Source: Escherichia phage AV126. Taken from it: a stretch of DNA of 64,000 nt. The position numbers and the translations under genes were made by a program. Below are positions 12,807 to 27,990 of the stretch, piece after piece. Positions within the stretch are counted from its first letter, which is position 1, and each line of letters starts with the position of its first letter. Below the pieces are notes generated by a model that was given only the letters and a program-made list of their open reading frames with translations, made no database searches and had not been told where the DNA came from. The DNA lies in the sequence record OR352956.1. One strand, written 5' to 3'.

Positions 12807-12812
12807 TAAAGA

Positions 12813-15446: not shown

Positions 15447-15501
15447 TATTTTAACTTTTTTCATTTTTAGAACAAAGGTGTCACTTTGTAGCACAGAAAT
15501 A

Positions 15502-15537
15502 AGGCTCCTACAGCACCGTAGAGAGCCTGTTATTTTG
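15502..15537 (+). terminator. rho-independent terminator candidate
   Basis: AGGCTCCTACAGCACCGTAGAGAGCCT hairpin followed by GTTATTTTG, downstream of NADAR gene. Confidence 0.55.
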
Positions 15538-15670
15538 TCCTATACAAACCCTTGTCTTTTTCAGTTTGCATCACTAGGATTCGATCTGAGTGGGTTCCTG
15601 AAGGTCTGCCAATAAGATTAAAGGTTATCTCAAATTCCCACTACCTATTATCTCAAAAATCCCTCAAATT

Positions 15671-15737
15671 ATTTAAACTTTTTAAGAATTTACAAAAGTG
15701 AAAGTTGAAAACCAAAATTTAAAGTTTAGGAAAAATT
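15671..15737. repeat. ~67-bp AT-rich direct repeat, copy 1
   Basis: ATTTAAACTTTTTAAGAATTTACAAAAGTGAAAGTTGAAAACCAAAATTTAAAGTTTAGGAAAAATT; about 80% identical to copy at 15809-15875. Confidence 0.7.
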
Positions 15738-15808
15738 ATCTTAGAATGTTAGATACAAACAAAACTCAAAAGTCAAGGAAAATTTTAAAAATTTTGCGCG
15801 CCCACAGT

Positions 15809-15875
15809 ATTTAAAGTTTTTTTGCTTTTACAAAAATGAAAGTACAAAAGCAAAATTTAAAGTTTACAAAAATTT
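15809..15875. repeat. ~67-bp AT-rich direct repeat, copy 2
   Basis: ATTTAAAGTTTTTTTGCTTTTACAAAAATGAAAGTACAAAAGCAAAATTTAAAGTTTACAAAAATTT. Confidence 0.7.
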
Positions 15876-15908
15876 ATGCAGGTGGGAATGAGAAGAGTTC
15901 TCATGTGG

Positions 15909-15935
15909 AAATGCAAATGATAATGATTCGCATTT
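15909..15935. promoter_or_regulatory. Fur-box-like palindromic operator
   Basis: AAATGCAAATGATAATGATTCGCATTT; core TGATAATgATTcgCA matches the 7-1-7 Fur consensus TGATAATnATTATCA at 12/14. Confidence 0.45.
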
Positions 15936-15951
15936 AAGTTTATAAACGAGA

Positions 15952-15993
15952 TTGATTCTTATTCAATAAGGTAAATGATAATCATTCTCATTT
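15952..15993 (+). promoter_or_regulatory. sigma70-like promoter overlapped by Fur-box-like operator
   Basis: TTGATT -35, 17-nt spacer, ATGATA/GATAAT -10 region; operator AAATGATAATCATTCTCATTT (13/14 to 7-1-7 Fur consensus) overlaps the -10. Confidence 0.5.
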
Positions 15994-16221
15994 AGAGAAT
16001 GACGCGCAGGGGCGGTGTTTGTCTCGCGCTCCCGTGTCCCCTCGCCATGTAATAAGAATAACAGATCCAACCAGGAAAGCAAGCGATTATTTTATCTTTA
16101 CATTTCTTTACAAATATATAGCGCCCAGCCTACCGGCGATCAACCTTCCAACCAGCGCCCCTGGTATGTTAGCCCCGCCTTTACGCCGTGGGGTGGCGCT
16201 TCCTCTTCTGTATGTAAAACA

Positions 16222-16262
16222 GTATAAGCCCGATCCCTGGGCTTGTCAAGATTATTTTTTGT
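16222..16262. terminator. hairpin plus T-run (possible bidirectional terminator)
   Basis: AAGCCCGATCCCTGGGCTT then GTCAAGATTATTTTTTGTTTTC; just beyond stop of minus ORF 16252..16518; minus sense also reads TTGACA-17-TATACT. Confidence 0.4.
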
Positions 16263-16518
16263 TTTCTTGCCAGGATAGGACACCTAACCAAAAATGCATA
16301 TCGCCCCGCGCCGCTGGCGGGATCTTGCTTTCCCCGCCGCCACTGCAAGCCCATAAATAACCATCAGCAAACGGATCAAAATGTTCTATCTCTTCCACTT
16401 TATGATCGCCCAGGTTGAGAACGGTTTCAACCTTTAAGCCCGTTGCGCTTGCTACCTGGTGCACCGTGCCGCCTTGCCAGCCCAATGAGTGCATAAGGTG
16501 TAATGTAGTATTTGTCAT
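16252..16518 (-). CDS. hypothetical protein (88 aa) in GC-rich island
   Basis: Only minus-strand ORF in the plus-oriented region; GC-rich codon usage unlike flanks; GGCGATACC upstream of ATG. Confidence 0.45.
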   Translation of the reverse strand: MTNTTLHLMHSLGWQGGTVHQVASATGLKVETVLNLGDHKVEEIEHFDPFADGYLWACSGGGESKIPPAARGDMHFWLGVLSWQENKK

Positions 16519-16626
16519 GGTATCGCCCTTTCTTTGATGTGCGCCCTGGTTGGCGCGGTAGAAAGATAATAGCCCTTTTCTTTATATATAGCAAGCAAAA
16601 AGAAAATAAAAAAGATTGAAAAATGG

Positions 16627-16686
16627 TTGACGTTAACCAGGCGGCGGCGTAGTATTCATCTTATAGGGCGGCAATGGTGCCGCTCA
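16627..16686 (+). promoter_or_regulatory. PeSL-like cassette 1
   Basis: TTGACG / TAGTAT / hairpin GGGCGGCAATGGTGCCGCTC; ORF at 16705. Confidence 0.55.
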
Positions 16687-16704
16687 CTATTTGGAGTTAA
16701 GATC

Positions 16705-16902
16705 ATGGCAACATTGCACATTGTGGCGAAAGCTGGACAAATCAACGTAGTGGTAAACGGTTTTACTGAGTTCAGTCACCCCCAGGATGATCATGAAACG
16801 GTTTTATCTTTCATTGATTCCCTGTTAGAAATGGGAGTCATTACAGAAGACCAGCACGCTACAAAATGCAAGCGCGTTAATCAAATTGCAGGAATAGAAT
16901 AA
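16705..16902 (+). CDS. hypothetical small protein (65 aa)
   Basis: ATG at 16705 after GGAG, directly downstream of PeSL-like cassette. Confidence 0.5.
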   Translation: MATLHIVAKAGQINVVVNGFTEFSHPQDDHETVLSFIDSLLEMGVITEDQHATKCKRVNQIAGIE

Positions 16903-16908
16903 AAACTA

Positions 16909-16968
16909 TTGACAACAAACAACAACCTGATAAGATGTATCACATAGGGCGGGAAGTGGTTTCCCGCT
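16909..16968 (+). promoter_or_regulatory. PeSL-like cassette 2
   Basis: TTGACA / TGaTAAGAT / hairpin GGGCGGGAAGTGGTTTCCCGC; ORF at 16993. Confidence 0.65.
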
Positions 16969-16992
16969 CGTAACAGAAGAGAGATTATCATC

Positions 16993-17265
16993 ATGGCATC
17001 ATATAGCGCAACAATGATCGTAGCTGGCACAACTGGTAAACCTATGAGCGGTGGCGGATCTTTCGCTAATATCAATATTGACGGGCGTTTATCCCTGGAC
17101 GCAGCGATCGCTATTGCACGGGAAACATTTAAGAAAGAATGTAATTTCAACAAGCAAGATTATCTCGGTTTCGCTATTGAAAAAACCGCGCGCTTTGTTG
17201 ATTATAAAAGCCCGAAAATGGTTGATACTACACTAAAAGCGCAAGATGTAGCGTTTTTGCTTTAA
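16993..17265 (+). CDS. hypothetical protein (90 aa)
   Basis: Downstream of PeSL-like cassette. Confidence 0.55.
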   Translation: MASYSATMIVAGTTGKPMSGGGSFANINIDGRLSLDAAIAIARETFKKECNFNKQDYLGFAIEKTARFVDYKSPKMVDTTLKAQDVAFLL

Positions 17266-17268
17266 GGC

Positions 17269-17325
17269 TTGACATTAACGAATAATTTGTTAATATGTTA
17301 CATAAAGCGGGAATAGTTCCCGCTA
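17269..17325 (+). promoter_or_regulatory. PeSL-like cassette 3
   Basis: TTGACA / TAATAT / hairpin AGCGGGAATAGTTCCCGCT; ORF at 17342. Confidence 0.65.
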
Positions 17326-17341
17326 TTTGTAAGGTGGTAGA

Positions 17342-17599
17342 ATGTTTTACATCAAATTAAAAGGTCACGTGATCGCGTTCAAAGATAACGCTTTTTACAG
17401 ATTAGCAAAATATGCGTTAATACATCCCCACTATGTTTATATAAGGGGGCGTGATGAAATAAATATCTTTGATCAAACAACATGCGAGAACATCGAGATC
17501 CGCAAGGTTGGCGTACGTGATTATCGTACATCTTTCTACCCTTGCAAGGATTCAGCAAGTCTTTTTAAAGTATGCCAATTGTTGAAAAAAGGTGGTTAA
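17342..17599 (+). CDS. hypothetical protein (85 aa)
   Basis: Downstream of PeSL-like cassette. Confidence 0.55.
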   Translation: MFYIKLKGHVIAFKDNAFYRLAKYALIHPHYVYIRGRDEINIFDQTTCENIEIRKVGVRDYRTSFYPCKDSASLFKVCQLLKKGG

Positions 17600-17600
17600 T

Positions 17601-18158
17601 ATGGGCCGCGAATATGTGATCCAGTCTTGGGTAAAACATGAAGCAGATGATCCGCGCATCATTCCCGATCATCTTATCGATGAATCCACGGGATATAGCG
17701 GTGAGCAAATAGGTAACAGATTAGCACGTAGTAACGGCAACGTAAAAGCGCGTTATGTGCGCCCTGGCTGGCTGGCAAATGGTAACGCTGATTTATCCAG
17801 TGCGGAAGATGCAAGCGACGGCGCGAAAGATAATCCTTTGTACAAAATTGATCCGGCTTTTCGTGTCCTGGATGAATACCCCAGCAAGATAGCGGCGCTT
17901 GATGAAGCATTGGAAAGTAAGCGCATCACCTGGACCGCTTACAACATGGCAAAAAACGTACTTGATGGTAAATTGATTCAAGCTGAAAGAAAATTAGCCA
18001 AAATTGCAGCCATAGCCCAGGAGGAAGACGAGGAGACAACGGAAGAGGAAGAGTACGAAGAGATCCCGCCGTTGTTGTGTATTGATGCTTTTCCTGATTA
18101 TCAGCCGACAGAGGAAGAAAAAAGGATCGCACTAGAAAACTTTGAAAATAGTCTTTGA
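17601..18158 (+). CDS. hypothetical acidic protein (185 aa)
   Basis: ATG at 17601 after AAGGTGG; its TGA stop lies inside the next TTGACA -35. Confidence 0.55.
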   Translation: MGREYVIQSWVKHEADDPRIIPDHLIDESTGYSGEQIGNRLARSNGNVKARYVRPGWLANGNADLSSAEDASDGAKDNPLYKIDPAFRVLDEYPSKIAALDEALESKRITWTAYNMAKNVLDGKLIQAERKLAKIAAIAQEEDEETTEEEEYEEIPPLLCIDAFPDYQPTEEEKRIALENFENSL

Positions 18159-18212
18159 CATATCGCCGCCACTGGCATAATATTTACCACGTAGGGCGGC
18201 AATGGTGCCGCT
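18155..18212 (+). promoter_or_regulatory. PeSL-like cassette 4
   Basis: TTGACA (contains TGA stop of upstream ORF) / TAATAT / GGGCGGCAATGGTGCCGCTC; peptide ORF at 18241. Confidence 0.65.
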
Positions 18213-18240
18213 CATAGTGAAATTATACAGGAGGTTTACA

Positions 18241-18336
18241 ATGATTAATAAAGAAAATAGCTTGACGGTTGGAACGATTAACGCTATCATTTTCGCCGTT
18301 CCATTTTGGGTTGTAGTAGCGGCTATTATTTTCTAA
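18241..18336 (+). CDS. hypothetical hydrophobic peptide (31 aa)
   Basis: ATG after AGGAGG, downstream of PeSL-like cassette; predicted single transmembrane segment. Confidence 0.35.
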   Translation: MINKENSLTVGTINAIIFAVPFWVVVAAIIF

Positions 18337-18344
18337 AAAATATT

Positions 18345-18406
18345 CTTGACAACGTTTTTTAATCTGATAAGATGTATCACATAGGGCGGCGGAATACTTC
18401 CCCGCC
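18345..18406 (+). promoter_or_regulatory. PeSL-like cassette 5
   Basis: TTGACA / TGaTAAGAT / hairpin; ORF at 18428. Confidence 0.65.
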
Positions 18407-18427
18407 AAAACAAAAAAGGGTAACACA

Positions 18428-18790
18428 ATGAGCAAGCAAATCAATACTATCATGTTTAATCTGGTATCTTTCCGCGATGATATGAAAAATTTACCACGTG
18501 AAACGGTTGATATTCATGTTTCAGCTTATCGCGCCCTTATTGATATGTTACCGCTAAAACGTGATCAACATGCCGCTAATATGATGCTTAATGCTATGCT
18601 TAAAAAGATGATTCAAACGGATCTTACTCTGGCATATGAGTATCAAGGGCGCTTATATGCTACTTACAACAAAGCGGTACCTGGTCTGGGAAGTACCGAA
18701 GAGTTGCACGGCTTAAACCTGGATCAGAACACTTGGGATAGTATGCGCCGCGTTATGGTATGGGCCGAAAGCGGTAAAATTTACGAATAA
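18428..18790 (+). CDS. hypothetical protein (120 aa)
   Basis: Downstream of PeSL-like cassette. Confidence 0.55.
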   Translation: MSKQINTIMFNLVSFRDDMKNLPRETVDIHVSAYRALIDMLPLKRDQHAANMMLNAMLKKMIQTDLTLAYEYQGRLYATYNKAVPGLGSTEELHGLNLDQNTWDSMRRVMVWAESGKIYE

Positions 18791-18796
18791 AAACGG

Positions 18797-18856
18797 TTGA
18801 CACTGTTTAAAATGCTGGTATAGTTTATCACATAGGGCGGGAAGTGGTTTCCCGCC
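18797..18856 (+). promoter_or_regulatory. PeSL-like cassette 6
   Basis: TTGACA / TATAGT / GGGCGGGAAGTGGTTTCCCGCC; ORF at 18879. Confidence 0.65.
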
Positions 18857-18878
18857 AACAATGAAAAAGGTTATCATC

Positions 18879-19244
18879 ATGGCTATTAATATTAATGTTT
18901 CCGCTTATGCTACCCTGGCTAACACGGCTAAAATTGAATTATCCAGCATTGAGGCGGTGCATATTAGCGCCCGTCGCTGGTTTCAACAGTCCTACGGTAA
19001 CACGTATTTTTCTTTAATGGTTGACGTTGAGATCGGCGGTAAACTGATCGAGGTGGTTAACGTTCCGTTTCAATATGGCTATGGTGATCATTTTGATACC
19101 GTCGCCCTGGAAGAATTTAGCAAGGTTATCAACCTTGAGGGCAAGGAATTTTCACGCGGCGCGTATCTTTCCCGTTTTTGCCGTGACAATGGGATCACTG
19201 TATACAGTCATGCAAGCGATGTTAAACGTAAAAAAGATCTATAA
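18879..19244 (+). CDS. hypothetical protein (about 121 aa)
   Basis: Downstream of PeSL-like cassette; ATG 18879 preferred over 18861. Confidence 0.5.
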   Translation: MAININVSAYATLANTAKIELSSIEAVHISARRWFQQSYGNTYFSLMVDVEIGGKLIEVVNVPFQYGYGDHFDTVALEEFSKVINLEGKEFSRGAYLSRFCRDNGITVYSHASDVKRKKDL

Positions 19245-19250
19245 AAAGCA

Positions 19251-19310
19251 TTGACAGCACGAATAAAAAGAGTAAACTGTATTACATAGAGAGCGGGAAC
19301 ACTTCCCGCC
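19251..19310 (+). promoter_or_regulatory. PeSL-like cassette 7
   Basis: TTGACA / TAAACT / GAGCGGGAACACTTCCCGCC; ORF at 19334. Confidence 0.65.
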
Positions 19311-19333
19311 TCACTGAAAAAGAGAGAAAAATC

Positions 19334-19573
19334 ATGGCTAAATCTAAAATGTACAACGGTCACAAAAACAAAACTCATTGGAATGTAAGCCTGTGGATTA
19401 ATAACGATGAGGGATTGTATCGGTTTGCATTGGGATTGATCAATGAGTGCGGTAATAAAGATCAGGCGGCTGATTTAATGTGCTACCGTTTGAAACAGGA
19501 TGGAATCACTACAACGCCAGACGGCTTTAAGTATAGTAAAACTGCAATCCGCGCCGCTATGGTTGGAATGTAA
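19334..19573 (+). CDS. hypothetical protein (79 aa)
   Basis: Downstream of PeSL-like cassette. Confidence 0.55.
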   Translation: MAKSKMYNGHKNKTHWNVSLWINNDEGLYRFALGLINECGNKDQAADLMCYRLKQDGITTTPDGFKYSKTAIRAAMVGM

Positions 19574-19582
19574 TAAAAACAG

Positions 19583-19642
19583 TTGACAACGTTTAAAATT
19601 AGTGTAAGATGTATCACATAGGGCGGGAAGTGGTTTCCCGCC
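19583..19642 (+). promoter_or_regulatory. PeSL-like cassette 8
   Basis: TTGACA / TGTAAGAT / GGGCGGGAAGTGGTTTCCCGCC; ORF at 19665. Confidence 0.65.
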
Positions 19643-19664
19643 AACAACAGAGAGATTAAAGATT

Positions 19665-19892
19665 ATGGCTATCAATATTGTTCGTGTATCCGGCACCGTT
19701 GGCAGTTCCCAGGTTGTAGCAGTTGTAACAAACAAAAAGATTAATGATGTATGTGAGATCTTGAATAAGTGGGCTATTGCTAATTTTGGGGAATATGCAA
19801 GCGTTGAGTACATCGAATCCTACCAGGTGCCGACCATCAGCCTAACCGATCTCAACGTTGATCGCCTGTTATGCCTGGATGAATTAATCTGA
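19665..19892 (+). CDS. hypothetical protein (75 aa)
   Basis: Downstream of PeSL-like cassette. Confidence 0.55.
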   Translation: MAINIVRVSGTVGSSQVVAVVTNKKINDVCEILNKWAIANFGEYASVEYIESYQVPTISLTDLNVDRLLCLDELI

Positions 19893-19901
19893 AAAAGATT
19901 G

Positions 19902-19959
19902 TTGACACGGGAAAGAAAAAGAGTAAACTGTATTACGTAGGGCGGCAATAGTGCCGCTC
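19902..19959 (+). promoter_or_regulatory. PeSL-like cassette 9
   Basis: TTGACA / TAAACT / GGGCGGCAATAGTGCCGCTC; ORF at 19983. Confidence 0.65.
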
Positions 19960-19982
19960 ACAACAGAAGAGAGATTATCACG

Positions 19983-20198
19983 ATGGCTAATATCCGTACA
20001 CTGTTAAAAAATGCAAGTCAAGTTTTATTTTCAGATGACGAGTATTTCAACAAAGACATTACAGGCGTGAAAAATTTAAAAGACGTGAAGGATGTTATCG
20101 GTATCCGTGGATCTTTACGTAAAGGTGATATATACGGTAACAAGGTGCAATATAAACTGTCAAAAGATTATGATTTTACTTTGACAATTATTTCATAA
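19983..20198 (+). CDS. hypothetical protein (71 aa)
   Basis: Downstream of PeSL-like cassette. Confidence 0.55.
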   Translation: MANIRTLLKNASQVLFSDDEYFNKDITGVKNLKDVKDVIGIRGSLRKGDIYGNKVQYKLSKDYDFTLTIIS

Positions 20199-20204
20199 AA
20201 CCGC

Positions 20205-20266
20205 TTGCAATCTTAATAAAATAAAGTAAACTGTATTACATCAAGGCGGCGGAATGGTCCACCGCC
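20205..20266 (+). promoter_or_regulatory. PeSL-like cassette 10
   Basis: TTGCAA / TAAACT / AGGCGGCGGAATGGTCCACCGCCT; ORF at 20291. Confidence 0.55.
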
Positions 20267-20290
20267 TAACAAAGAGAAGAGGAAAATATT

Positions 20291-20458
20291 ATGATCACTT
20301 TCGCTACCCGTGAAGCCGCTCGCAACGTTGCCCGTAAAGTTAACGCCGCCAACCTGGGCGCTACACTTAAAGCCCCGGTAAAAGATGCATCAGGCGCGTG
20401 GATCTTCCCTGGTCTGCGTCACGCTGATAAGCTAGGCACTTTAAGCCTTAAAAAATAA
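20291..20458 (+). CDS. hypothetical small basic protein (55 aa)
   Basis: ATG after GAGGAAAA downstream of PeSL-like cassette; shares MITFA start with next ORF. Confidence 0.4.
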   Translation: MITFATREAARNVARKVNAANLGATLKAPVKDASGAWIFPGLRHADKLGTLSLKK

Positions 20459-20461
20459 TCG

Positions 20462-20500
20462 TTGACTTTTCGTTATAGCGCCTTATAATGGGCGCTATAG
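20462..20500 (+). promoter_or_regulatory. promoter cassette 11 (variant; hairpin overlaps -10)
   Basis: TTGACT / TATAAT flanked by inverted repeat ATAGCGCC...GGCGCTAT; ORF at 20533. Confidence 0.55.
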
Positions 20501-20532
20501 AGAAGAGAAACCACTACTAACAAGGAAACATC

Positions 20533-20754
20533 ATGATCACTTTCGCTATTGTCGCCGTTGTCGCTGGTCAGGTTTACGTAAACGAGACATTTACTACAGA
20601 AGACAAGGCCGCAGGAGATATAACCGCCGTTTACAACGAGTGCAAGGCAGTAGAAAGGATGTTAGCGCCTTGTATGCTAATGAGTGAACGCCAGGACGGG
20701 ATAACAGTATTTACTAACATTGAAACAGGGTACCAAATGGTAGTAACAAAATAA
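20533..20754 (+). CDS. hypothetical protein (73 aa)
   Basis: Downstream of variant promoter cassette. Confidence 0.5.
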   Translation: MITFAIVAVVAGQVYVNETFTTEDKAAGDITAVYNECKAVERMLAPCMLMSERQDGITVFTNIETGYQMVVTK

Positions 20755-20757
20755 AGC

Positions 20758-20814
20758 TTGACACGGATTTAATTTTCAGTAAACTGTTACACGTAGGGCG
20801 GGAATAGTTCCCGC
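20758..20814 (+). promoter_or_regulatory. PeSL-like cassette 12
   Basis: TTGACA / TAAACT / GGGCGGGAATAGTTCCCGCTC; ORF at 20834. Confidence 0.65.
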
Positions 20815-20833
20815 TCAAAAAGAGAGAAAGACT

Positions 20834-21187
20834 ATGAAAGCACAAAATGCAATTAAAGAGTACATCCTTGCCGCTATCGATTTTAATGATTACGGTATTA
20901 CAACCGAAAAAGAGAAGATCGCGGAATTGATGCGCCGTTTTAATTCCGAGTACTGGTACCCTGATAACCAATCACGTTTTAATTATAGTATTGTTAAAGC
21001 ACTTGCATCATGGTTACAAGGTTTGCCATCAGATATCAATATCGCTTTCGAATATTGGGAAATTGATCGCCTGTTAACATCCTGGGGATACATTAAAGAG
21101 AATAGCCGCGATGATAAAATCCAACGAGAAAGGGAAAATTATTGGCTTTATATTGCAGGCGTGATCCTTGCTTGCTCTTATGAATGA
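20834..21187 (+). CDS. hypothetical protein (117 aa)
   Basis: Downstream of PeSL-like cassette. Confidence 0.55.
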   Translation: MKAQNAIKEYILAAIDFNDYGITTEKEKIAELMRRFNSEYWYPDNQSRFNYSIVKALASWLQGLPSDINIAFEYWEIDRLLTSWGYIKENSRDDKIQRERENYWLYIAGVILACSYE

Positions 21188-21193
21188 TAAACC

Positions 21194-21249
21194 TTGACAA
21201 TTTTACAAAACAGTTTAAATTAACAATATAGCGGCAATGGTGCCGCTCA
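21194..21249 (+). promoter_or_regulatory. PeSL-like cassette 13
   Basis: TTGACA / TTTAAAT / AGCGGCAATGGTGCCGCTC; ORF at 21267. Confidence 0.55.
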
Positions 21250-21266
21250 TATGAAGAGGAAACAAA

Positions 21267-21413
21267 ATGAATACATCTAATCGCGCAGAAAAAATTCAAT
21301 CTTCCAAGATCCGCAAGGCCTGGAACGAGGAAGTGATCCGCAAAGGCGACAAGCGTAATAAAACAAAGCGCGGGAAGAGTGACAAATATAATTGGATGGA
21401 TTTAGAGGATTAA
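21267..21413 (+). CDS. hypothetical small basic protein (48 aa)
   Basis: ATG after GAGGAAAC downstream of PeSL-like cassette; followed by terminator at 21421. Confidence 0.4.
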   Translation: MNTSNRAEKIQSSKIRKAWNEEVIRKGDKRNKTKRGKSDKYNWMDLED

Positions 21414-21420
21414 CATAACA

Positions 21421-21448
21421 AGGGCGCACCAAGCGCCCTTTCTTTTTA
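21421..21448 (+). terminator. rho-independent terminator
   Basis: AGGGCGCACCAAGCGCCCT + TTCTTTTT. Confidence 0.8.
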
Positions 21449-21468
21449 CATGTAGAGGATAAACAAAA

Positions 21469-21654
21469 ATGACTTTAAACGAGCTTAAAACAGCGTACAG
21501 CGCAACATTAAAAATAGCCGTGCGTTACCGTGACGAATACGGTTTTATTGCGCAGGGCGTGATCCTGGGCTTTTCTGACGATGGTTTGATCTATGTTGAT
21601 GCACATTATAACAAGGTTAAACCGGAAAACGTTATTAGCATAAAATATCTTTAA
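21469..21654 (+). CDS. hypothetical protein (61 aa)
   Basis: ORF after terminator; GAGGATAAACA upstream. Confidence 0.45.
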   Translation: MTLNELKTAYSATLKIAVRYRDEYGFIAQGVILGFSDDGLIYVDAHYNKVKPENVISIKYL

Positions 21655-21660
21655 AAACGG

Positions 21661-21720
21661 TTGACACCATAACCGGACCTGTTAAACTGTATTACATCAG
21701 GCGGGGAATAGTTCCCCACC
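21661..21720 (+). promoter_or_regulatory. PeSL-like cassette 14
   Basis: TTGACA / TAAACT / GGCGGGGAATAGTTCCCCACC; ORF at 21740. Confidence 0.65.
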
Positions 21721-21739
21721 ATACAAAAAGGTAAATATT

Positions 21740-21946
21740 ATGATCACCGCAAAACAAGAAAAAATCATTATCGACGTTGCAGCCGTTGCCGCTATCGCTA
21801 TTATTGGATCTTATTATGATACCCGTTTCCCGTCGGCTATGCATGAGGTCGCCGCCGTTGCATCAGTTGGCGTACTGTTTTACGTTGGTAAACGCTATTT
21901 ATCACCAATGATTAACAAGCTGACACCGTGGAAAAATAAAGGTTGA
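21740..21946 (+). CDS. hypothetical membrane protein (68 aa)
   Basis: Downstream of PeSL-like cassette; hydrophobic AAVAAIAIIGSYY. Confidence 0.5.
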   Translation: MITAKQEKIIIDVAAVAAIAIIGSYYDTRFPSAMHEVAAVASVGVLFYVGKRYLSPMINKLTPWKNKG

Positions 21947-21998
21947 TCCTGTTTTACATTGTGTTATAGTTATCGTGTAGGGCGGCAATGGTGCCGCG
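21943..21998 (+). promoter_or_regulatory. PeSL-like cassette 15
   Basis: TTGATC / TGtTATAGT / GGGCGGCAATGGTGCCGC; ORF at 22018. Confidence 0.55.
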
Positions 21999-22017
21999 CC
22001 CCTTTGAGGATGCAATC

Positions 22018-22302
22018 ATGAGTAAAGCTAACACCGTGCTAATGTTTTCCCTGATTAATGATCTCGCTTACTTGTCCAACATGACGCAGGAGGGTAACAC
22101 ATTAACGGCAACATTCACCAATAAGCTTGACCGAGTGATCATCGTCTCACTGAAAACAGTTAGTAAAGGCTTTTACTCGTTAGCTTATCATTGTATCACT
22201 GACACCGACGAGACAAGCCAGGACTATAGCGCCCCTTTCCCTGAATCAATGGCACGGGAGATCATCGCCGCCGTTGTAAATGATGGTTTGTTTACTGCAT
22301 AA
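22018..22302 (+). CDS. hypothetical protein (94 aa)
   Basis: ATG at 22018 after GAGGATG; ORF-track start at 21988 lies inside the cassette hairpin. Confidence 0.5.
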   Translation: MSKANTVLMFSLINDLAYLSNMTQEGNTLTATFTNKLDRVIIVSLKTVSKGFYSLAYHCITDTDETSQDYSAPFPESMAREIIAAVVNDGLFTA

Positions 22303-22319
22303 ATAATTTAGAAAAAGGC

Positions 22320-22376
22320 TTGCAATCATTTTGAGATAGTGTATATTTAATTCATAGGGCGGCGGGAATAGTTCCC
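22320..22376 (+). promoter_or_regulatory. PeSL-like cassette 16
   Basis: TTGCAA / TATATT / GGGCGGCGGGAATAGTTCCC; peptide ORF at 22400. Confidence 0.5.
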
Positions 22377-22399
22377 AAAGCAAACGAGAGGATTACACG

Positions 22400-22519
22400 A
22401 TGAGCAAGTACACAGTAGAATACACGGTAGAGAATCCGGCAGTATCCGAAGGTAAAAAGATGACATTTGCCATCAGTATAATCGCTTTCGTTGTCACTAT
22501 CTTATCAATCATCTTATAA
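22400..22519 (+). CDS. hypothetical hydrophobic peptide (39 aa)
   Basis: Downstream of PeSL-like cassette; C-terminal TM-like segment. Confidence 0.35.
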   Translation: MSKYTVEYTVENPAVSEGKKMTFAISIIAFVVTILSIIL

Positions 22520-22529
22520 GGTACACACC

Positions 22530-22691
22530 ATGAAAATAGCAGACATTATCAAAGAGATCGCCCTTGCCACTGGTATCGAGATCGAGGAAGTGATCGCGCT
22601 CAATCTTACAGAAAACGATTTGCGCAACTATGAAGCGGAAAGCGTGAAAGCAAGTGGCGCGGTCCTGGCATATAATCCGGCTAACAAATAG
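22530..22691 (+). CDS. hypothetical small protein (53 aa)
   Basis: First ATG of ORF-track ORF 22491..22691. Confidence 0.4.
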   Translation: MKIADIIKEIALATGIEIEEVIALNLTENDLRNYEAESVKASGAVLAYNPANK

Positions 22692-22692
22692 T

Positions 22693-22750
22693 TTGACAAG
22701 CTGAATCAACCTGATAAGATGTATGACATAGGGGCGACAAGCGCCCCGCC
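22693..22750 (+). promoter_or_regulatory. PeSL-like cassette 17
   Basis: TTGACA / TGaTAAGAT / GGGGCGACAAGCGCCCCGCC; ORF at 22772. Confidence 0.65.
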
Positions 22751-22771
22751 TAACAGAAGAGAGAAAAAATC

Positions 22772-23050
22772 ATGACCATCACCAAATTATCTACCGAAGA
22801 GATCACCAACATTCTGACTACTAATCTGCAAGATTGGAAGCGTGAAGCCGATTTGCAAGCGGTTTGCAAGCTGAATGTAGAGTTAACAGAAAGCGACATT
22901 GACGCCATTATTAACCCTGATTTCTATGATGCTATTCATGATGATTCTATTATCCTTGAAACACTATTAGATAATACTTGGATCAATCCCGATTTGGCAG
23001 CTTATGACCGTAGCGCCTTTATCACTATCCACAATATCTATAACCGTTAA
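22772..23050 (+). CDS. hypothetical protein (92 aa)
   Basis: Downstream of PeSL-like cassette. Confidence 0.55.
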   Translation: MTITKLSTEEITNILTTNLQDWKREADLQAVCKLNVELTESDIDAIINPDFYDAIHDDSIILETLLDNTWINPDLAAYDRSAFITIHNIYNR

Positions 23051-23172
23051 GGGGCGTAGCATGAATCCGAGAGATATGCAATCATGGAAAGGGTGCGACG
23101 ATCTAAGCGCCTTGCGCAATAAGTCAAGCCGTAACCTTAGACGGTTGGAAGCAAAGAAAAAGAAAAAATAGT

Positions 23173-23230
23173 TTGACAAGTCGGCTTAGTCTGGTAATAT
23201 GTATCTTGTAGGGCGGCAATGGTGCCGCTC
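23173..23230 (+). promoter_or_regulatory. PeSL-like cassette 18
   Basis: TTGACA / TGgTAATAT / GGGCGGCAATGGTGCCGCTC; ORF at 23250. Confidence 0.65.
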
Positions 23231-23249
23231 ACAAGAAGAGAGAAAAATC

Positions 23250-23534
23250 ATGGAAATCACAAAAAGCCTAACTAATTATGCAGCACGTCGCGGATTATGT
23301 TTAACCGTTGAAAACTTAGGGAAAGAAGACTTTTTGTGTTTTTGGGAGCTTGAAAATGATTGCGAGTGGATGTTTTCCTATTCTATCTGCGAAGATCAAA
23401 ACGGTTGTTTGTTAACCTGGCGCGGTAATATCTATTTACCGGAAGAAATTAAAGAAGAGTTACCAGGTACAATCATGACAGAGAGACAGCTTAAGGAAGT
23501 GATCAATTTTGTAGGGCAAAACATTAAAAAATAA
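23250..23534 (+). CDS. hypothetical protein (94 aa)
   Basis: ATG at 23250 after GAGAGAAAAA downstream of cassette. Confidence 0.5.
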   Translation: MEITKSLTNYAARRGLCLTVENLGKEDFLCFWELENDCEWMFSYSICEDQNGCLLTWRGNIYLPEEIKEELPGTIMTERQLKEVINFVGQNIKK

Positions 23535-23535
23535 T

Positions 23536-23597
23536 TTGACAGCACGCAAACAACGTAGTAAAGTTTACCACATAGGGCGGCGGAATGGTCCACCGCT
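23536..23597 (+). promoter_or_regulatory. PeSL-like cassette 19
   Basis: TTGACA / TAAAGT / GGGCGGCGGAATGGTCCACCGCTC; ORF at 23620. Confidence 0.65.
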
Positions 23598-23619
23598 CAC
23601 AACAGAAGAGAAACAAATC

Positions 23620-23790
23620 ATGATCCCGACTATGTTTTATGTATCGCGCAAAGGTCACAATATTTTTTGGTCTGAAGATTTAAATGAAGCCATGACGTTT
23701 GCCCGTGATCGTGTTGCTATCGGTGGCGTTAACATCACCGTAACCGATGAAAATGGCATTGAATACTATAACGGCGACGATGAAGAGTAA
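23620..23790 (+). CDS. hypothetical small protein (56 aa)
   Basis: ATG at 23620 downstream of cassette. Confidence 0.45.
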   Translation: MIPTMFYVSRKGHNIFWSEDLNEAMTFARDRVAIGGVNITVTDENGIEYYNGDDEE

Positions 23791-23856
23791 TTAATAAGGC
23801 GGGGAATACTTCCCGCCACGCAGTGAATTTTCCGTTTGGGAAGTAAAAAATAAATC

Positions 23857-23917
23857 TTGACGATAATTTGTTATCTGATAGAATGTATTTCGTAGGGCGG
23901 GGCAATAAGGCAACGCC
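23857..23917 (+). promoter_or_regulatory. PeSL-like cassette 20
   Basis: TTGACG / TGaTAGAAT / GGGCGGGGCAATAAGGCAACGCCC; peptide ORF at 23937. Confidence 0.55.
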
Positions 23918-23936
23918 CATTAATGAGGGTAGAATC

Positions 23937-24041
23937 ATGTTAGAGAAAATTTTCACGGTTGCAGTAGTTGGCCTGGCGTTATCGGTTGGAGTGGTTGCAA
24001 CTATGGCTAATATGATCCTATCTTCCCACGGTATCGGCTAA
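23937..24041 (+). CDS. hypothetical hydrophobic peptide (34 aa)
   Basis: Downstream of PeSL-like cassette; TM-like AVVGLALSVGVVATMANMIL. Confidence 0.35.
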   Translation: MLEKIFTVAVVGLALSVGVVATMANMILSSHGIG

Positions 24042-24051
24042 GGTGAAACAA

Positions 24052-24267
24052 ATGATCACGAATAAGACAGGTAAAACGGAATTTTTACGCGGCTTGCAAG
24101 TTGGTAAACCTGAGATCTGGCATTGTACTAAATCCGCGCATAATGAAATGAAAGATTTTACCGCTACTTTACAACGTGTTAAAATATCTATCACACAGAA
24201 AAAAGCCTTGTTAGTAGTAGAAAACGAGATCCCGCAAACTATTATTATTGTCGAGCGTACAGCATGA
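24052..24267 (+). CDS. hypothetical protein (71 aa)
   Basis: ATG 24052 after AAGGTG (ORF track starts at GTG 24043). Confidence 0.5.
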   Translation: MITNKTGKTEFLRGLQVGKPEIWHCTKSAHNEMKDFTATLQRVKISITQKKALLVVENEIPQTIIIVERTA

Positions 24268-24650
24268 AAACAGAAATCATTATTGAAATCATCAACGGTT
24301 ATAAAGAAGCCTTTATTTTTGCTGAATCAGCAAGGGATCATGAAGGTAATTTTATTGAAAACTTAGACGATTATGATTTTTCTCCTAGCGCGGACGAACG
24401 GATCGCCCAGGATGTAACAGCCTTTATTAATGCTAATCTTGCCGCTATCTCTGAGGCAATGAGCGACGGCGCAACAGCCAACCAGATCGGGAATGATTTA
24501 CATTTTACCCGTAACGGTCACGGCGTAGGCTTTTGGGATCGCCCTGAAATATACACCACTAACACGGCGAACCGCCTAACCAATGCAGCTAAGTTTATGC
24601 CGAACGTGTCGGCTTACATTGGTGAAGATAATTTGATTTATATTGAATAA
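24264..24650 (+). CDS. hypothetical protein (128 aa)
   Basis: ORF overlapping previous stop by 4 nt. Confidence 0.55.
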   Translation: MKTEIIIEIINGYKEAFIFAESARDHEGNFIENLDDYDFSPSADERIAQDVTAFINANLAAISEAMSDGATANQIGNDLHFTRNGHGVGFWDRPEIYTTNTANRLTNAAKFMPNVSAYIGEDNLIYIE

Positions 24651-24656
24651 AAAGTA

Positions 24657-24712
24657 TTGACACAGATCGCCAGTGTGCTAATATTTACCACGTAGGGCGG
24701 CAATGGTGCCGC
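24657..24712 (+). promoter_or_regulatory. PeSL-like cassette 21
   Basis: TTGACA / TGcTAATAT / GGGCGGCAATGGTGCCGCC; ORF at 24732. Confidence 0.65.
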
Positions 24713-24731
24713 CGATAATGAGGAAAGTAAA

Positions 24732-25031
24732 ATGGAAACTATCGCTATTGTTACCGTAGAAAAACTGGTTGTTGGTGATGTATTCGCGTTAATGGTGCCT
24801 AACAGCAGCAAGCTGGGCGCTTATGAAGTAATGGATCATAAAAATGAATCATTTGGCGACGGTTGCACAATGGCGGTAAAATCTTTAAAGGATGGAATCA
24901 TCCGCCAGGCTAACTGGCACAAAGGGAATCAAGTCGGTTTAATATCAGCTAATTTCTTGCCAGAAGAGCAAACGTTAGACCAACTATCAGGCGGTAAGAC
25001 GTTAGCCGAACTACTGGAAACAGCGATCTAA
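24732..25031 (+). CDS. hypothetical protein (99 aa)
   Basis: Downstream of PeSL-like cassette. Confidence 0.55.
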   Translation: METIAIVTVEKLVVGDVFALMVPNSSKLGAYEVMDHKNESFGDGCTMAVKSLKDGIIRQANWHKGNQVGLISANFLPEEQTLDQLSGGKTLAELLETAI

Positions 25032-25075
25032 TCAACAAAGGGGCGGCAACGCCCCACATCAGAAAGGAAAAGATT

Positions 25076-25312
25076 ATGAGTATTGCAACAGTATTAAACG
25101 CCGTTAAAACCGCTGAATCATCCGGCTTGCATGTTGAGCTTATAGATCAACCAGGTGGCGATCTCCTTGTCCAGGTTTACCCGCCGAAAGTAGGGGATGA
25201 TTATTATTGGGCTTATTCTGATACGTTCGAACAAGTAGACACGAAAGCGATCACGGCTTTTATTTTAAAAGCTATTGAAGAAAATAACTTTCATCATAAC
25301 ATCAATCAATAA
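25076..25312 (+). CDS. hypothetical protein (78 aa)
   Basis: ORF preceded by GC hairpin and AGGAAAAG. Confidence 0.5.
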   Translation: MSIATVLNAVKTAESSGLHVELIDQPGGDLLVQVYPPKVGDDYYWAYSDTFEQVDTKAITAFILKAIEENNFHHNINQ

Positions 25313-25366
25313 ACCATAAGCGGGGCGGTAACGCCCCATTAAACGCAATAGGAAGAGGATAGACGC

Positions 25367-25657
25367 ATGAAAAAGATGATCGCAGTAGTTGCCCTGGTTG
25401 TTGGTATTAACGCGCCTGTACTGGCTAATGAGTTGCCAGAATCCATCACGCTAACCGATATCAACGCAATAAACCGGATCGGCGTTAATTATCGCCTATG
25501 CCTTGCCGCTAAAACTTTCCAGGACGGCACGACAGAATACCACGGATTCGAGGGTATCCGCTGCGGTGAGCTTGCACGCGACCTTAAGGAAGATCCAGAC
25601 CTTGAGGCCATACCGATGACCGTAAACGGTAAAGCTTACGTAAACCGCCAACAATGA
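25367..25657 (+). CDS. hypothetical secreted protein (96 aa)
   Basis: Signal-peptide-like MKKMIAVVALVVGINAPVLA. Confidence 0.5.
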   Translation: MKKMIAVVALVVGINAPVLANELPESITLTDINAINRIGVNYRLCLAAKTFQDGTTEYHGFEGIRCGELARDLKEDPDLEAIPMTVNGKAYVNRQQ

Positions 25658-25788
25658 GAAAGATAATCATCACAATGGGGATCGTAGTAGCAACGCTGGC
25701 GCTTATCCCCTTCATGGTTGAACATGTGCTGATCAGTGTTGTCCTTGTAGTCAGTGACCTATTGGAAACGGTTGGCAACTGGTTTTAA
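25654..25788 (+). CDS. hypothetical hydrophobic peptide (44 aa)
   Basis: ATG overlapping previous stop; two TM-like segments. Confidence 0.35.
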   Translation: MRKIIITMGIVVATLALIPFMVEHVLISVVLVVSDLLETVGNWF

Positions 25789-25963
25789 GATAAATAAACA
25801 GGGCTTGTTTTTGTCCTGTTTTTTGTTATACTTATTGAACGGGCGGCACTTGGGAGCAGGTGAAGATAATCACCGGAAGATCCCGCTATATATCGATAGC
25901 TAATACCTATCAAACAACAAAACATCAAAGAGATAAACTATCAAATCTTTACAATCCTACCTA

Positions 25964-26020
25964 TTGACACCGGATCACGCTTACATTATTATTTATCACG
26001 TAGGGCGAGCAATACAGCAA
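25964..26020 (+). promoter_or_regulatory. promoter cassette 22 (degenerate hairpin)
   Basis: TTGACA / TACATT-TATTAT / GGGCGAGCAATACAGCAAGCCC; ORF at 26042. Confidence 0.5.
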
Positions 26021-26041
26021 GCCCACAAAGAGGAAAAGAAG

Positions 26042-26410
26042 ATGAGCAAATCAGCAATTAAAGCAGTTGAAAAAGCGCAAGAAGTGATCGCAACGTCAAC
26101 CACTGGCGCAAAGGTTAATCTCGTTGGTTATCTGACAGATGAAGCTATCCGTAAAAATTGGCGTAATGCTGATTTACTGGCTTGCTTATTGATTAATAGT
26201 GTCGCTAATGCTTTCCAGTGTGAAACAGCCGAGAGCCTGGAGGAAAACTTGTTTGATAATATGGATCAAGCCATTGAAACCTATATACAATCAAACCTGG
26301 ATAGCTGGAACAGTAAGACATGGCCTGACAGCTTACGCGATACAACTGATCAACTGATCCGCCTTGCCCTGATGGTTGAACGCGATAACGTTCACAACCG
26401 CACAAAGTAA
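26042..26410 (+). CDS. hypothetical protein (about 123 aa)
   Basis: First ATG after AGAGGAAAAGAAG; ORF-track TTG start at 25964 is the -35 hexamer. Confidence 0.5.
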   Translation: MSKSAIKAVEKAQEVIATSTTGAKVNLVGYLTDEAIRKNWRNADLLACLLINSVANAFQCETAESLEENLFDNMDQAIETYIQSNLDSWNSKTWPDSLRDTTDQLIRLALMVERDNVHNRTK

Positions 26411-26476
26411 GATTATACAAGGGGCGCACTAAGCGCCCTTTAACGTAAAGAAATGTAAATAATGCGCTATCCCCTA

Positions 26477-26510
26477 TTGACAGGGGATCGGCGTTATATT
26501 ATATTTAACT
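26477..26510 (+). promoter_or_regulatory. sigma70-like promoter
   Basis: TTGACA (inside palindrome CCCCTATTGACAGGGG) / TATATT; ORF at 26551. Confidence 0.5.
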
Positions 26511-26550
26511 CACTGGCAGCAAACAACGAAACGAAACAAAGGACAACACC

Positions 26551-26970
26551 ATGAACATTAAATCAAATAATCCAGCTTACTCCTTCGATAACGCTTTTTG
26601 TCACGGTAGCGCCGCCAAAGGCTTCGAAATCGATGGTAAATTGGTTATCGTGAACGTTGACGGGGAAGAGGTTGCAGTGTATCCGGTAAACGATGTTAAA
26701 AGCCGTTTACAATGCCGCATGGATGTTACCGCATATCAGCTTGATCCGGTCCGTGTAGTTGCCCTGGTATTAGAGGAAGAGATCAAAGCAATGCATCACA
26801 GTAATAAGTTTATTGGTGACGCGCAGGATAATATGAACGTTTGCCGCCATAAAGTTAATGAAGCATTGAAAGAATATGGTTTTAAGGATCTGATGATCAA
26901 ACGTGATGAAAAATTCCGCTTTCGTAATGACCTGGCAAACCGGATCTACTCAATCTATGAAGCGTTATAA
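26551..26970 (+). CDS. hypothetical protein (139 aa)
   Basis: ORF with own TTGACA promoter, followed by strong terminator. Confidence 0.55.
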   Translation: MNIKSNNPAYSFDNAFCHGSAAKGFEIDGKLVIVNVDGEEVAVYPVNDVKSRLQCRMDVTAYQLDPVRVVALVLEEEIKAMHHSNKFIGDAQDNMNVCRHKVNEALKEYGFKDLMIKRDEKFRFRNDLANRIYSIYEAL

Positions 26971-26983
26971 TCGACAACAAAAC

Positions 26984-27012
26984 AAGGGGCGCACCAAGCG
27001 CCCTTTCTTTTT
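26984..27012 (+). terminator. rho-independent terminator
   Basis: AAGGGGCGCACCAAGCGCCCTTT + CTTTTTG; ends the PeSL island. Confidence 0.8.
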
Positions 27013-27218
27013 GCCTGAACAATGTTGATAGCTTTCGCCTATGAAAAACCGACACAGAACAAAACTGAATAAATCGCGGTATCGAGCTAATCAACCATCA
27101 AACGAATAACCATACATCCCAGGGCAACAGGCTGTTAGAGAGCTATTTAGAGCGGTTAAAATCGATCTACAACCAACAACAAACCATCAAAAACACCCTT
27201 TTACCTCCTTTCTAGTGC

Positions 27219-27237
27219 AATGATAACCATTATCATC
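27219..27237. promoter_or_regulatory. Fur-box-like palindrome
   Basis: AATGATAACCATTATCATC; 13/14 match to TGATAATnATTATCA. Confidence 0.5.
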
Positions 27238-27580
27238 TACCCATGATTATCTATGCAATATAAGCGCATAATTATAATGTTGATAATAGTTCGCAACAAC
27301 TAACCAACAAACAACATAAAACAATAAGCAAACTAATCATAATCAAAGGAATAATAGCAAGATGATTGATAACGACAAACAATCAAACCATGATGAATAC
27401 TAAGCAAGATAACGATAACACGACAAAACAACCAACTAACGAACAATAACAAACGAAACCATTAAAAGATCAACTATTAGCAAAATAGTGTCTATTGCCA
27501 TAATAGTGACTGAATGAAATCATTACAAAACGAATCATTCCAAGGATCATCATTAGCACGCTACGCCGGACACGTAGCGA

Positions 27581-27708
27581 GCTAATAATAAGCCAACTAC
27601 ACCCCAACAATCATAACCATCGGTGACGGTTATTTCTTGTTACTGCGTAGCTTGCAATAATTGCAAGCGTAATGACGCTTACACTTATTGCGCTGGCTTA
27701 TTATTAGC
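27581..27708. repeat. 14-bp perfect inverted repeat pair flanking ~100 bp rich in palindromes
   Basis: GCTAATAATAAGCC at 27581-27594 and its reverse complement GGCTTATTATTAGC at 27695-27708; internal palindrome CTTGCAATAATTGCAAG (27651-27668); adjacent hairpin GCTACGCCGGACACGTAGC. Confidence 0.55.
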
Positions 27709-27990
27709 ATTATATGTAATTACCAAGATCATAACATTAGCGCAATAACAATAATCATTACAATAATTACATAAGGAAACAATTAGCATAGCAATAATTA
27801 TGGGGGCAATGGGAGGATGATTATCATCATTCCGATACATTGCACACTATGCACATAATAAGATAAAAAGCAATAATCTTGGGGGCGAAATGTTACCGCC
27901 ACAGGCGGGAATGTTGAGCATCTTCTCTTAAACGTAAATAAAATCAGAAAATTCTTGATTTATTTTAGTTTTTATGTTAATAAACGTTTA

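Follow-up and report, generated by a model that had tools for sequence, protein, structure and literature searches.

Repeated promoter and stem-loop cassettes in the small-gene island of a Phapecoctavirus

Why should a phage place the same short module in front of one very small gene after another? The question is raised by Escherichia phage AV126 (sequence record OR352956.1), from which a stretch of 64,000 nucleotides, below called the window, was analyzed. Between positions 16627 and 26510 of the window lies a hyperplastic island of early type, with ~31 small genes (31–185 aa) and 22 promoter cassettes on the + strand. An earlier note on this DNA had described a promoter and stem-loop module that recurs before almost every small open reading frame (ORF), and had likened it to the promoter-early stem-loop (PeSL) elements of T4-type phages. 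The module is indeed present, in 22 copies and far above chance. We consider it probable that the copies are immediate-early σ70 expression cassettes whose 5′ stem-loop would stabilize the mRNA and which, as comparison with relatives shows, also are substrates of recombination. The most fitting description is that of an array of promoter/5′-hairpin expression cassettes which resembles PeSLs but is distinct from them, located in the early ORFan island of a Phapecoctavirus.

The phage belongs to the genus Phapecoctavirus (Stephanstirmvirinae), whose members are phAPEC8-like E. coli myoviruses with genomes of ~150 kb, and genomes of this genus such as tuntematon, Mt1B1_P17, vB_EcoM-P3322, and ESCO13 share 94–96% identity with its island. 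It is not a T4-type phage, and the PeSL label can therefore be used by analogy only. The statement that hairpins and ORFs are much more GC-rich than their surroundings was overstated as well, because the island exceeds the rest of the window by merely about three points (41.8 vs. 38.8%), with nearly equal values for its coding sequences (41.7%) and its intergenic DNA (41.8%).

Architecture of the repeated module

Direct reading of positions 15500–27400 and a regular-expression scan for TTGAC/−10 pairs yielded 23 σ70-like promoters, all on the + strand, from 16627 to 26505. A GC-rich hairpin follows 21 of them; the promoter at 20462 has its hairpin around the −10 element, and the last one (26477..26505, TTGACA-17-TATATT, upstream of a gene at 26551–26970) has none. 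Here and below, cassettes are designated by their first position. No further cassettes were detected outside the island on either strand of the whole 64 kb by an independent promoter plus hairpin detector. Nearly all promoters (22/23) score 9–11 out of 12 against the consensus. A consensus scan returned 64 promoter-like sites, compared to 35.5 ± 7.3 in shuffled sequences, and about 22 of the sites scoring 10–11 out of 12 are the + strand promoters of the cassettes.

An alignment of the copies (A1) shows that they are homologous promoter and stem-loop cassettes preceding small ORFan genes. The order of elements is an A-rich tract, which often includes the TAA stop codon of the preceding gene, TTGACA, a spacer of 16–17 nt, TAnnnT, the motif (G/T)TA(T/C)CAC(A/G)TA, a GGGCGG…CCGC(T/C)C hairpin, an A-rich leader, a Shine–Dalgarno (SD) sequence, and ATG. 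Invariant are TTG of the −35 element and T and A of the −10 element, while the upstream A-tract, (C/T)AC(A/G)TAGGGCGG, and the ATG are conserved; the −35 hexamer is a perfect TTGACA in 17 of the 22 copies. The TG of an extended −10 element, previously taken as part of the module, was found in 10 copies and is missing from the remaining ones. From the −10 element to the ATG the distance is 45–58 nt, and the leaders consist of 53% A and 74% purines.

Position and possible roles of the hairpin

The hairpins keep a fixed position relative to the promoter. In 16 of 21 copies the stem base begins 9–11 nt past the −10 element, while the remaining five have flanking pairs that lengthen the helix of minimum free energy; moreover, GCGG begins exactly 12 nt past the −10 element in 13 of 17 copies. 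With a predicted start 6–8 nt past the −10 element, the RNA would carry a 5′ tail of 2–4 nt before the stem. Judged from the sequence, 21 of the 22 hairpins would consequently be located within their own transcription unit, at about +3 to +5 of the predicted start, and hence in the 5′ end of the mRNA.

In addition to one degenerate copy (22320), there are 21 hairpins with folding energies of −11 to −20 kcal/mol, and 19 out of 20 are more stable than dinucleotide shuffles, with z-scores from −2.6 to −5.1. Several stem classes can be distinguished, namely GGGCGGCA/TGCCGC(T/C)C, GGGCGGGAA/TTCCCGC(T/C)C, GGCGGcGGA/TCCaCCGCC, GGGGCG/CGCCCC, and GGGCG…CGCCC. Despite these different stem sequences a stable fold is retained in 20 of 21 copies. 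The base of the stem (GCGG…CCGC) is constant across classes, whereas its top varies in sequence and length. When the hairpins were aligned by themselves with MAFFT (A2), the result was structurally inconsistent, since stem lengths differ; the support for the structure therefore comes from the fold z-scores of the single sequences and the listing of stem classes. The covariance models of Rfam 15 gave no hit at E ≤ 1 on either strand of positions 15000–28000, and no tRNAs were found in the window. Two further candidates were rejected: the stems of 8–10 bp are too short for an RNase III site, and hairpin promoters of the N4 type were ruled out because the hairpins come after ordinary σ70 promoters.

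The PeSL cassettes known from the T4-like phages RB49/phi1, T4/PST, and KVP40/nt-1 (Arbiol et al., 2010, PMC2839356; Comeau et al., 2014, PMC4122927) offer one possible function. In most PeSLs of RB49/phi1 the stem-loop occupies the spacer between the −35 and −10 elements or overlaps the −10 element, and it acts as a terminator; a minor subclass with a downstream stem-loop exists (PMC2839356). The hairpins of the island could likewise be terminators or attenuators that block read-through from upstream, so that each gene is driven by its own promoter alone. In line with this, PeSL stem-loops cut lacZ expression in the manner of a strong terminator (PMC2839356), each hairpin of the island is intergenic and downstream of a stop codon, and the cassette at 20462 is laid out like a typical PeSL, its hairpin covering the −10 element. 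However, the other hairpins come after the predicted start of their own transcription unit, where an efficient terminator would abort the transcript that it belongs to. The 8 nt past the stem contain 0–2 T in 17 of 21 copies and are rich in CA or A, whereas canonical terminators with a hairpin and a T-run stand apart from the cassettes, at 21420..21447 (followed by TCTTTTT, within the island), 25796..25828, and 26984..27013, where the last one closes the island. As the U-tract is absent and real terminators are separate features, the hairpins of the cassettes do not qualify as intrinsic terminators by their sequence, and we regard a terminator or attenuator role as quite unlikely.

Could the inverted repeats act as duplex DNA instead? 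They would then be operators, and a phage repressor bound just past the start site would silence the strong early promoters, in the way that anti-CRISPR promoters are silenced by Aca proteins. Early promoters of great strength generally have to be turned off, the palindromes are centered at about +15, a good position for a roadblock, and their outer half-sites GGCGG/CCGCC are conserved across classes. Yet the GCGG and CCGC arms are separated by 8–13 nt of self-complementary sequence, and the center shifts between classes, which is ill-suited to a dimer on duplex DNA; this arrangement agrees with a folded single strand and speaks against an operator of fixed spacing. Several stems also depend on G-T pairs (GGGCGG…/…CCGCTC). 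Furthermore, in FV3, an rV5-like Vequintavirus from another subfamily, the hairpins stand at the same distance from the promoter but have other stems (e.g., GGCGGGAAnnnTTCCCGCC and GGGGCAAACGTCTTGCCCC), so that position is retained and sequence is not. Finally, promoter-less hairpins of the same kind exist in the island, each directly before a leader and an SD sequence: GGCGGGGAATACTTCCCGCC between cistrons at 23798..23817, GGGGCGGCAACGCCCC at 25040..25055 before the gene 25076–25312, and GGGGCGGTAACGCCCC at 25322..25337 before the gene 25367–25657. Taken together, an operator function appears very improbable. The promoter-less copies suggest that the hairpin also works in transcripts that arise by read-through or processing.

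The reading that we favor assigns the hairpin to the RNA. Both RppH and RNase E depend on an unpaired 5′ end, and this requirement is the accepted reason why 5′ structures stabilize mRNAs (reviewed in PMC3997798). According to this model, the island would be an immediate-early gene block of the host-takeover type in a phAPEC8-like myovirus, whose near-consensus σ70 promoters could be used by the unmodified host RNA polymerase once the DNA has entered the cell. Transcription would start at an A 6–8 nt past the −10 element and give RNAs with 2–4 free nucleotides, a GC-rich stem-loop of 8–10 bp, and an unstructured, A-rich leader of 15–25 nt that contains the SD sequence and is followed by the ATG. 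Most likely, the 5′-terminal stem-loop would hide the 5′ end from RppH and from the 5′ sensor of RNase E and thereby stabilize these short mRNAs. The three promoter-less hairpins might confer similar protection on downstream cistrons after processing of read-through transcripts.

Several observations weigh against a stabilizing 5′ hairpin. E. coli mRNAs that decay via direct entry of RNase E gain no stability from 5′ hairpins (PMC3997798). The strand evidence for a hairpin at the RNA level is weak, with −13.8 kcal/mol for the sense and −12.8 kcal/mol for the antisense strand (p = 0.025), and three hairpins (20205, 21661, and 23536) contain a C/A mismatch that is a G-U pair on the opposite strand. 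No transcriptome of the phAPEC8-, phi92-, and rV5-like group was found in the literature, and promoter use, timing, and start sites are accordingly given here as predictions. In addition, the 5′ arm TAGGGCGG is conserved beyond structural need, which could be due to homogenization by recombination or to a sequence-specific factor.

Such a factor is the basis of another explanation, in which the constant stem base together with a 5′ AUAG would be a tag recognized in trans by an RNA-binding factor of phage or host, making about 22 early transcripts a single post-transcriptional regulon. The tag might serve for a timed shut-off of translation, or as a mark of “self” that spares phage mRNAs from phage-stimulated decay of host mRNA; in either case the sequence of AUAGGGCGG itself, beyond its fold, would matter. 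This agrees with the conservation of the 5′ flank and stem base ((C/T)AC(A/G)TAGGGCGG) next to a stem top that varies in sequence and length, with the fixed position, and with the occurrence of the element in two genera of the Stephanstirmvirinae and of the architecture also in rV5-like Vequintavirinae. Conservation can, however, also be explained by gene conversion among the repeats, and a candidate binding protein did not emerge: no known RNA-binding domain was found by PHROG and Pfam searches among the island proteins, and neither an Srd-like nor any other regulator was recognized among the neighboring genes at 8664–14714. We therefore consider a trans-acting factor unlikely.

Cassettes as recombination joints

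With 22 direct repeats of a 60–90 bp module, the island should be a substrate for homologous recombination. A blastn comparison of the region from 15 to 28.5 kb with nine Phapecoctavirus relatives revealed 20 distinct indel or replacement events. Of the 31 junctions, 12 fall within strictly defined cassette cores (−35 element to hairpin), which occupy 16% of the island (binomial p = 0.0024), and several others are located at promoter-less hairpins, at terminators, or within at most ~12 bp of a cassette. Many junctions show homology over 8–67 bp.

The clearest joints are found in phage nieznany, which lacks 19947–20214 and 23229–24644. Both joints are chimeric cassettes with the left part from one cassette and the right part from another: the cassettes at 19902 and 20205 recombined in the first case, and those at 23173 and 24657 in the second, with a deletion of 1.4 kb. 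One of the crossovers occurred within the shared sequence AGTAAACTGTATTAC, the other within a shared hairpin of 21 bp (GTAGGGCGGCAATGGTGCCGC). Similarly, ukendt lacks the gene 25076–25312 through a deletion between the two promoter-less GGGGCGG(C/T)AACGCCCC hairpins at 25040 and 25322, which recombined with each other. The window itself carries an additional cassette and ORF (22688–23047) that are absent from five relatives, and it lacks single genes present in relatives at three cassettes. These are an extra gene of 240–270 bp at cassette 18797 (homology 18849–18886), an insertion of ~300 bp at 20503–20526, next to the hairpin of cassette 20462, and an extra gene of 290 bp that five relatives have at 25986–26007 in cassette 25964. 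Most of a small ORF that follows 23817 in relatives is missing as well, and the terminator at 25796 is an indel junction in three relatives. For the event at 18797, where the homology includes the leader and the initial codons (ATGGCTAT), an origin by simple deletion from an arrangement like that of tuntematon was rejected, because it fails to explain the hairpin class of the window.

Two points have to be set against this picture. Some events lie off the cassettes (18303/18328, 24041/24259, and 25398/26755), and part of the enrichment of junctions may reflect selection, since viable phages keep genes intact and junctions would be intergenic anyway. Among relatives the island is far more fragmented than a control region: coverage of at least 80% was reached in only 14 of 231 matching records, each in 4–9 pieces, whereas the region from 46 to 56 kb was covered to at least 80% in 61 of 90 records, with ~98% identity and, among the matches listed, in a single piece throughout. 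As far as sequence comparison can tell, the evidence for cassettes as recombination joints is good. Crossovers between cassettes would delete, insert, or reorder modules of one gene, each of which would retain a working promoter and leader, and such exchange would take place within the genus and between phage subfamilies.

The cassettes are not restricted to close relatives. A cassette query of 90 nt matched 139 phage records, including Justusliebigvirus (phi92 and alia), Vequintavirus FV3, and a Serratia phage. The complete genome of tuntematon contains ~24 cassettes in the orthologous island and one elsewhere; this lone copy (39267–39342; TTGACA-16-TAAGAT, GCGGGGAATAGTTCCCCGC) precedes a gene for a TerC-like integral membrane protein. 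About 15 near-identical cassettes are present in phi92. FV3 has only short patches in common with phi92 and with the window, and the patches shared with phi92 are single genes of 90–94% identity in shuffled order, which indicates that modules bounded by cassettes were exchanged between subfamilies. A scan of viral contigs for TTGACA-N16/17-TANNNT-N9-11-GGGCGG gave just single, chance-like hits among the matches listed. In the literature on phAPEC8-, phi92-, and rV5-like phages we found no description of the cassettes, which the genome papers of phAPEC8 and phi92 might mention; the rV5 paper lists 33 promoters and does not mention hairpins. The island also matches 19 records labeled “Campylobacter phage,” among them B15 (MG065650; 95.6% identity over 78%) and C3 (MG065656), and the host labels of these records look doubtful.

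Spread by recombination invites the explanation that the hairpin itself does nothing and was merely carried along with the promoter as a part of the repeat. That cassettes are exchanged and homogenized by recombination, and that the hairpin of one copy (22320) has decayed, is compatible with it. Passive transfer would hardly account, though, for a stable fold that persists through several different stem sequences, for hairpins that also occur without a promoter, or for the FV3 hairpins at equal distance in unrelated sequence. A functionless hairpin thus is a highly improbable solution, and we retain the RNA-level role proposed above.

Genes and surroundings of the island, and comparison with known systems

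All but one of the ~31 island genes match PHROG families, nearly all of them of unknown function, and Pfam recognized only two of ~30 island proteins, a DUF7249 protein (19334–19573) and a homolog of T7 gp1.1 (21267–21413). The single-transmembrane (TM) peptides pointed out before were found at 18241, 22400, 23937, and 25654, and one island protein has a signal peptide.

The first cassettes (each with its extent and, in brackets, its hairpin and start codon) illustrate the variation among promoters: TTGACG-17-TAGTAT with a GGGCGGCA/TGCCGCTC stem in cassette 1 at 16627..16685 (16666–16685; ATG 16705), TTGACA-16-TAAGAT in cassette 2 at 16909..16969 (16947–16969; ATG 16993), and TTGACA-16-TAATAT in cassette 3 at 17269..17324 (17306–17324; ATG 17342). 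Cassette 4 at 18155..18219 (hairpin core 18194–18213; ATG 18241) precedes a TM peptide of 31 aa, and its −35 hexamer (TTGACA, 18155–18160) includes the TGA stop (18156–18158) of the ORF ending at 18158, just as the earlier note had it. It is followed by cassettes 5 at 18346..18406 (18385–18406; ATG 18428) and 6 at 18797..18856 (18836–18856; ATG 18879), by cassette 7 at 19251..19312 (19289–19312; ATG 19334), which serves the DUF7249 gene, and by cassettes 8 at 19583..19642 (19622–19642; ATG 19665) and 9 at 19902..19961 (19937–19961; ATG 19983). The gene behind cassette 9 (19983–20198) encodes a protein of 71 aa that matches no Pfam family; its annotation as phosphoribosylpyrophosphate synthetase in tuntematon, REC, and ukendt is implausible given its size. 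Cassette 10 at 20205..20267 (20244–20267; ATG 20291) uses TTGCAA-16-TAAACT. In the variant cassette 11 at 20462..20503 (20470–20503; ATG 20533), with TTGACT-16-TATAAT, the −10 element is located in the loop of the hairpin.

Cassette 12 at 20758..20816 (20796–20816; ATG 20834) is followed by cassette 13 at 21194..21252 (21226–21252; ATG 21267), which precedes the gp1.1-like gene, the product of which is a basic protein of 48 aa (Pfam Phage_1_1, E = 5e-13); the label of its counterpart in SKA64, “TDP-4-keto-6-deoxy-D-glucose transaminase,” is an obvious mis-annotation. Cassette 14 at 21661..21720 (21700–21720; ATG 21740) is followed by cassette 15 at 21943..22001 (21980–22001), which has TTGATC-16-TATAGT. 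In the commonest class of hairpins the loop (AATGG) includes an ATG, and relatives annotate the start of the gene behind cassette 15 at this loop ATG (21988; 315 nt), but a GAGGA SD sequence supports the ATG at 22018 (94 aa, full-length PHROG match). Cassette 16 at 22320..22381 (ATG 22400) combines TTGCAA-16-TATATT with the degenerate hairpin (−7.8 kcal/mol), and cassette 17 at 22693..22747 (22731–22747; ATG 22772) has the GGGGCG/CGCCCC stem. The remaining copies are cassettes 18 at 23173..23235 (23205–23235; ATG 23250) and 19 at 23536..23598 (23575–23598; ATG 23620), cassette 20 at 23857..23918 (TTGACG-16-TAGAAT; 23895–23918; ATG 23937), which precedes a TM peptide of 34 aa, and cassettes 21 at 24657..24713 (24696–24713; ATG 24732) and 22 at 25964..26026 (26000–26026; ATG 26042).

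The island is flanked by non-coding DNA on both sides, at 15450–16250 and from 26970 to ~28530. On the left, two direct repeats of 75 nt (15665–15877; 81% identical, 138 nt apart) lie in AT-rich sequence, and the corresponding stretch of tuntematon carries an annotated repeat_region. Three repeats AATGAnAAnnnTTCnCATTTA with a spacing of 29 nt follow at 15887–15994, within 0.8 kb of non-coding DNA, and the one at 15971–15989 matches the E. coli Fur-box consensus with three mismatches (0.02 expected by chance). The right flank, ~1.5 kb without any convincing ORF or annotated coding sequence in relatives, contains many CAACAA tracts, several short direct and inverted repeats, and, at ~27218–27240, AATGATAACCATTATCAT, which resembles the left-flank repeats. 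For the AATGAnAAnnnTTCnCATTTA/AATGATAACCATTATCAT repeats, a role as origin iterons or as iron-responsive sites is conceivable. Between the left flank and the island, a conserved gene for 88 aa without Pfam match (16252–16518, − strand) diverges from cassette 1 over a promoter region of ~100 bp, and its surroundings (16000–16600) belong to the GC-richest kilobase of the window (46%). Further upstream, 14904–15446 encodes a protein of 180 aa with a NADAR domain (Pfam E = 4e-35), annotated as “GTP cyclohydrolase II” in several relatives; beside an early island it may have an ADP-ribose-processing or anti-defense function. An ORF of 486 aa at 12895–14355, slightly upstream of the island region, matches PHROG families of endonucleases and HNH endonucleases.

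How far does the likeness to PeSLs go? Both systems combine an early promoter of the σ70 type, an AT-rich upstream tract, an adjacent GC-rich stem-loop, an SD sequence, and a start codon, both occur in many copies directly upstream of ORFans in a hyperplastic region, and in both the repeats bound indels between close relatives, which implies recombination between cassettes. For PeSLs, such events between neighboring cassettes also give rise to encapsidated mini-circles (PMC2839356, PMC4122927). To this extent the comparison drawn in the earlier note holds. It does not extend to the lineage, which is unrelated (Stephanstirmvirinae/Vequintavirinae), to the sequences, which show no detectable relationship to PeSLs, or to the hairpin, which has a fixed place past the predicted start in all copies but one (21/22; in 20462 it covers the −10 element) and, lacking a U-tract, is unlikely to be a terminator.

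Other systems share single traits with the array. Bacillus phage SPO1 reportedly has a host-takeover module of about two dozen very small genes, mostly of unknown function, in many short operons that are each said to have their own strong promoter of the early host type, and the island resembles it as a compact block of very small genes under predicted promoters of this kind. The SPO1 module lies in the terminal redundancy of a phage with a Gram-positive host, and to our knowledge it has no conserved 5′ stem-loop. Mycobacteriophage stoperators and start-associated sequences also are short conserved regulatory motifs repeated before many genes of one phage. They differ from the present promoter and hairpin modules in being protein-binding or translation-associated, and we know of no report that they act as recombination joints of this kind. 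The predicted layout of a stable hairpin a few nucleotides from the 5′ end, an unstructured leader, and a ribosome-binding site recalls two leaders of E. coli, those of ompA and papA, and the hairpin appended to bla, in which position counts more than sequence (PMC3997798). Unlike these stabilizers of single cellular genes, the hairpin of the island belongs to one phage module in 22 copies, and its stabilizing effect is a prediction.

In practical terms, the island offers 22 natural promoter/5′-untranslated region modules of predicted high strength as a defined set, and with its hairpin classes, promoter-less copies, and the hairpin over a −10 element it could be a test system for the control of mRNA fate by 5′ hairpins. 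Recombination at the cassettes would also explain differences in gene content between near-identical therapy phages. Within the literature that could be searched, recombining single-gene cassettes of promoter and stem-loop have been described only for T4-like phages. To find the same logic in unrelated, therapeutically popular coliphages (the relatives of phAPEC8, phi92, and rV5) suggests a convergent and general strategy by which large lytic phages keep their early gene set rapidly changeable.

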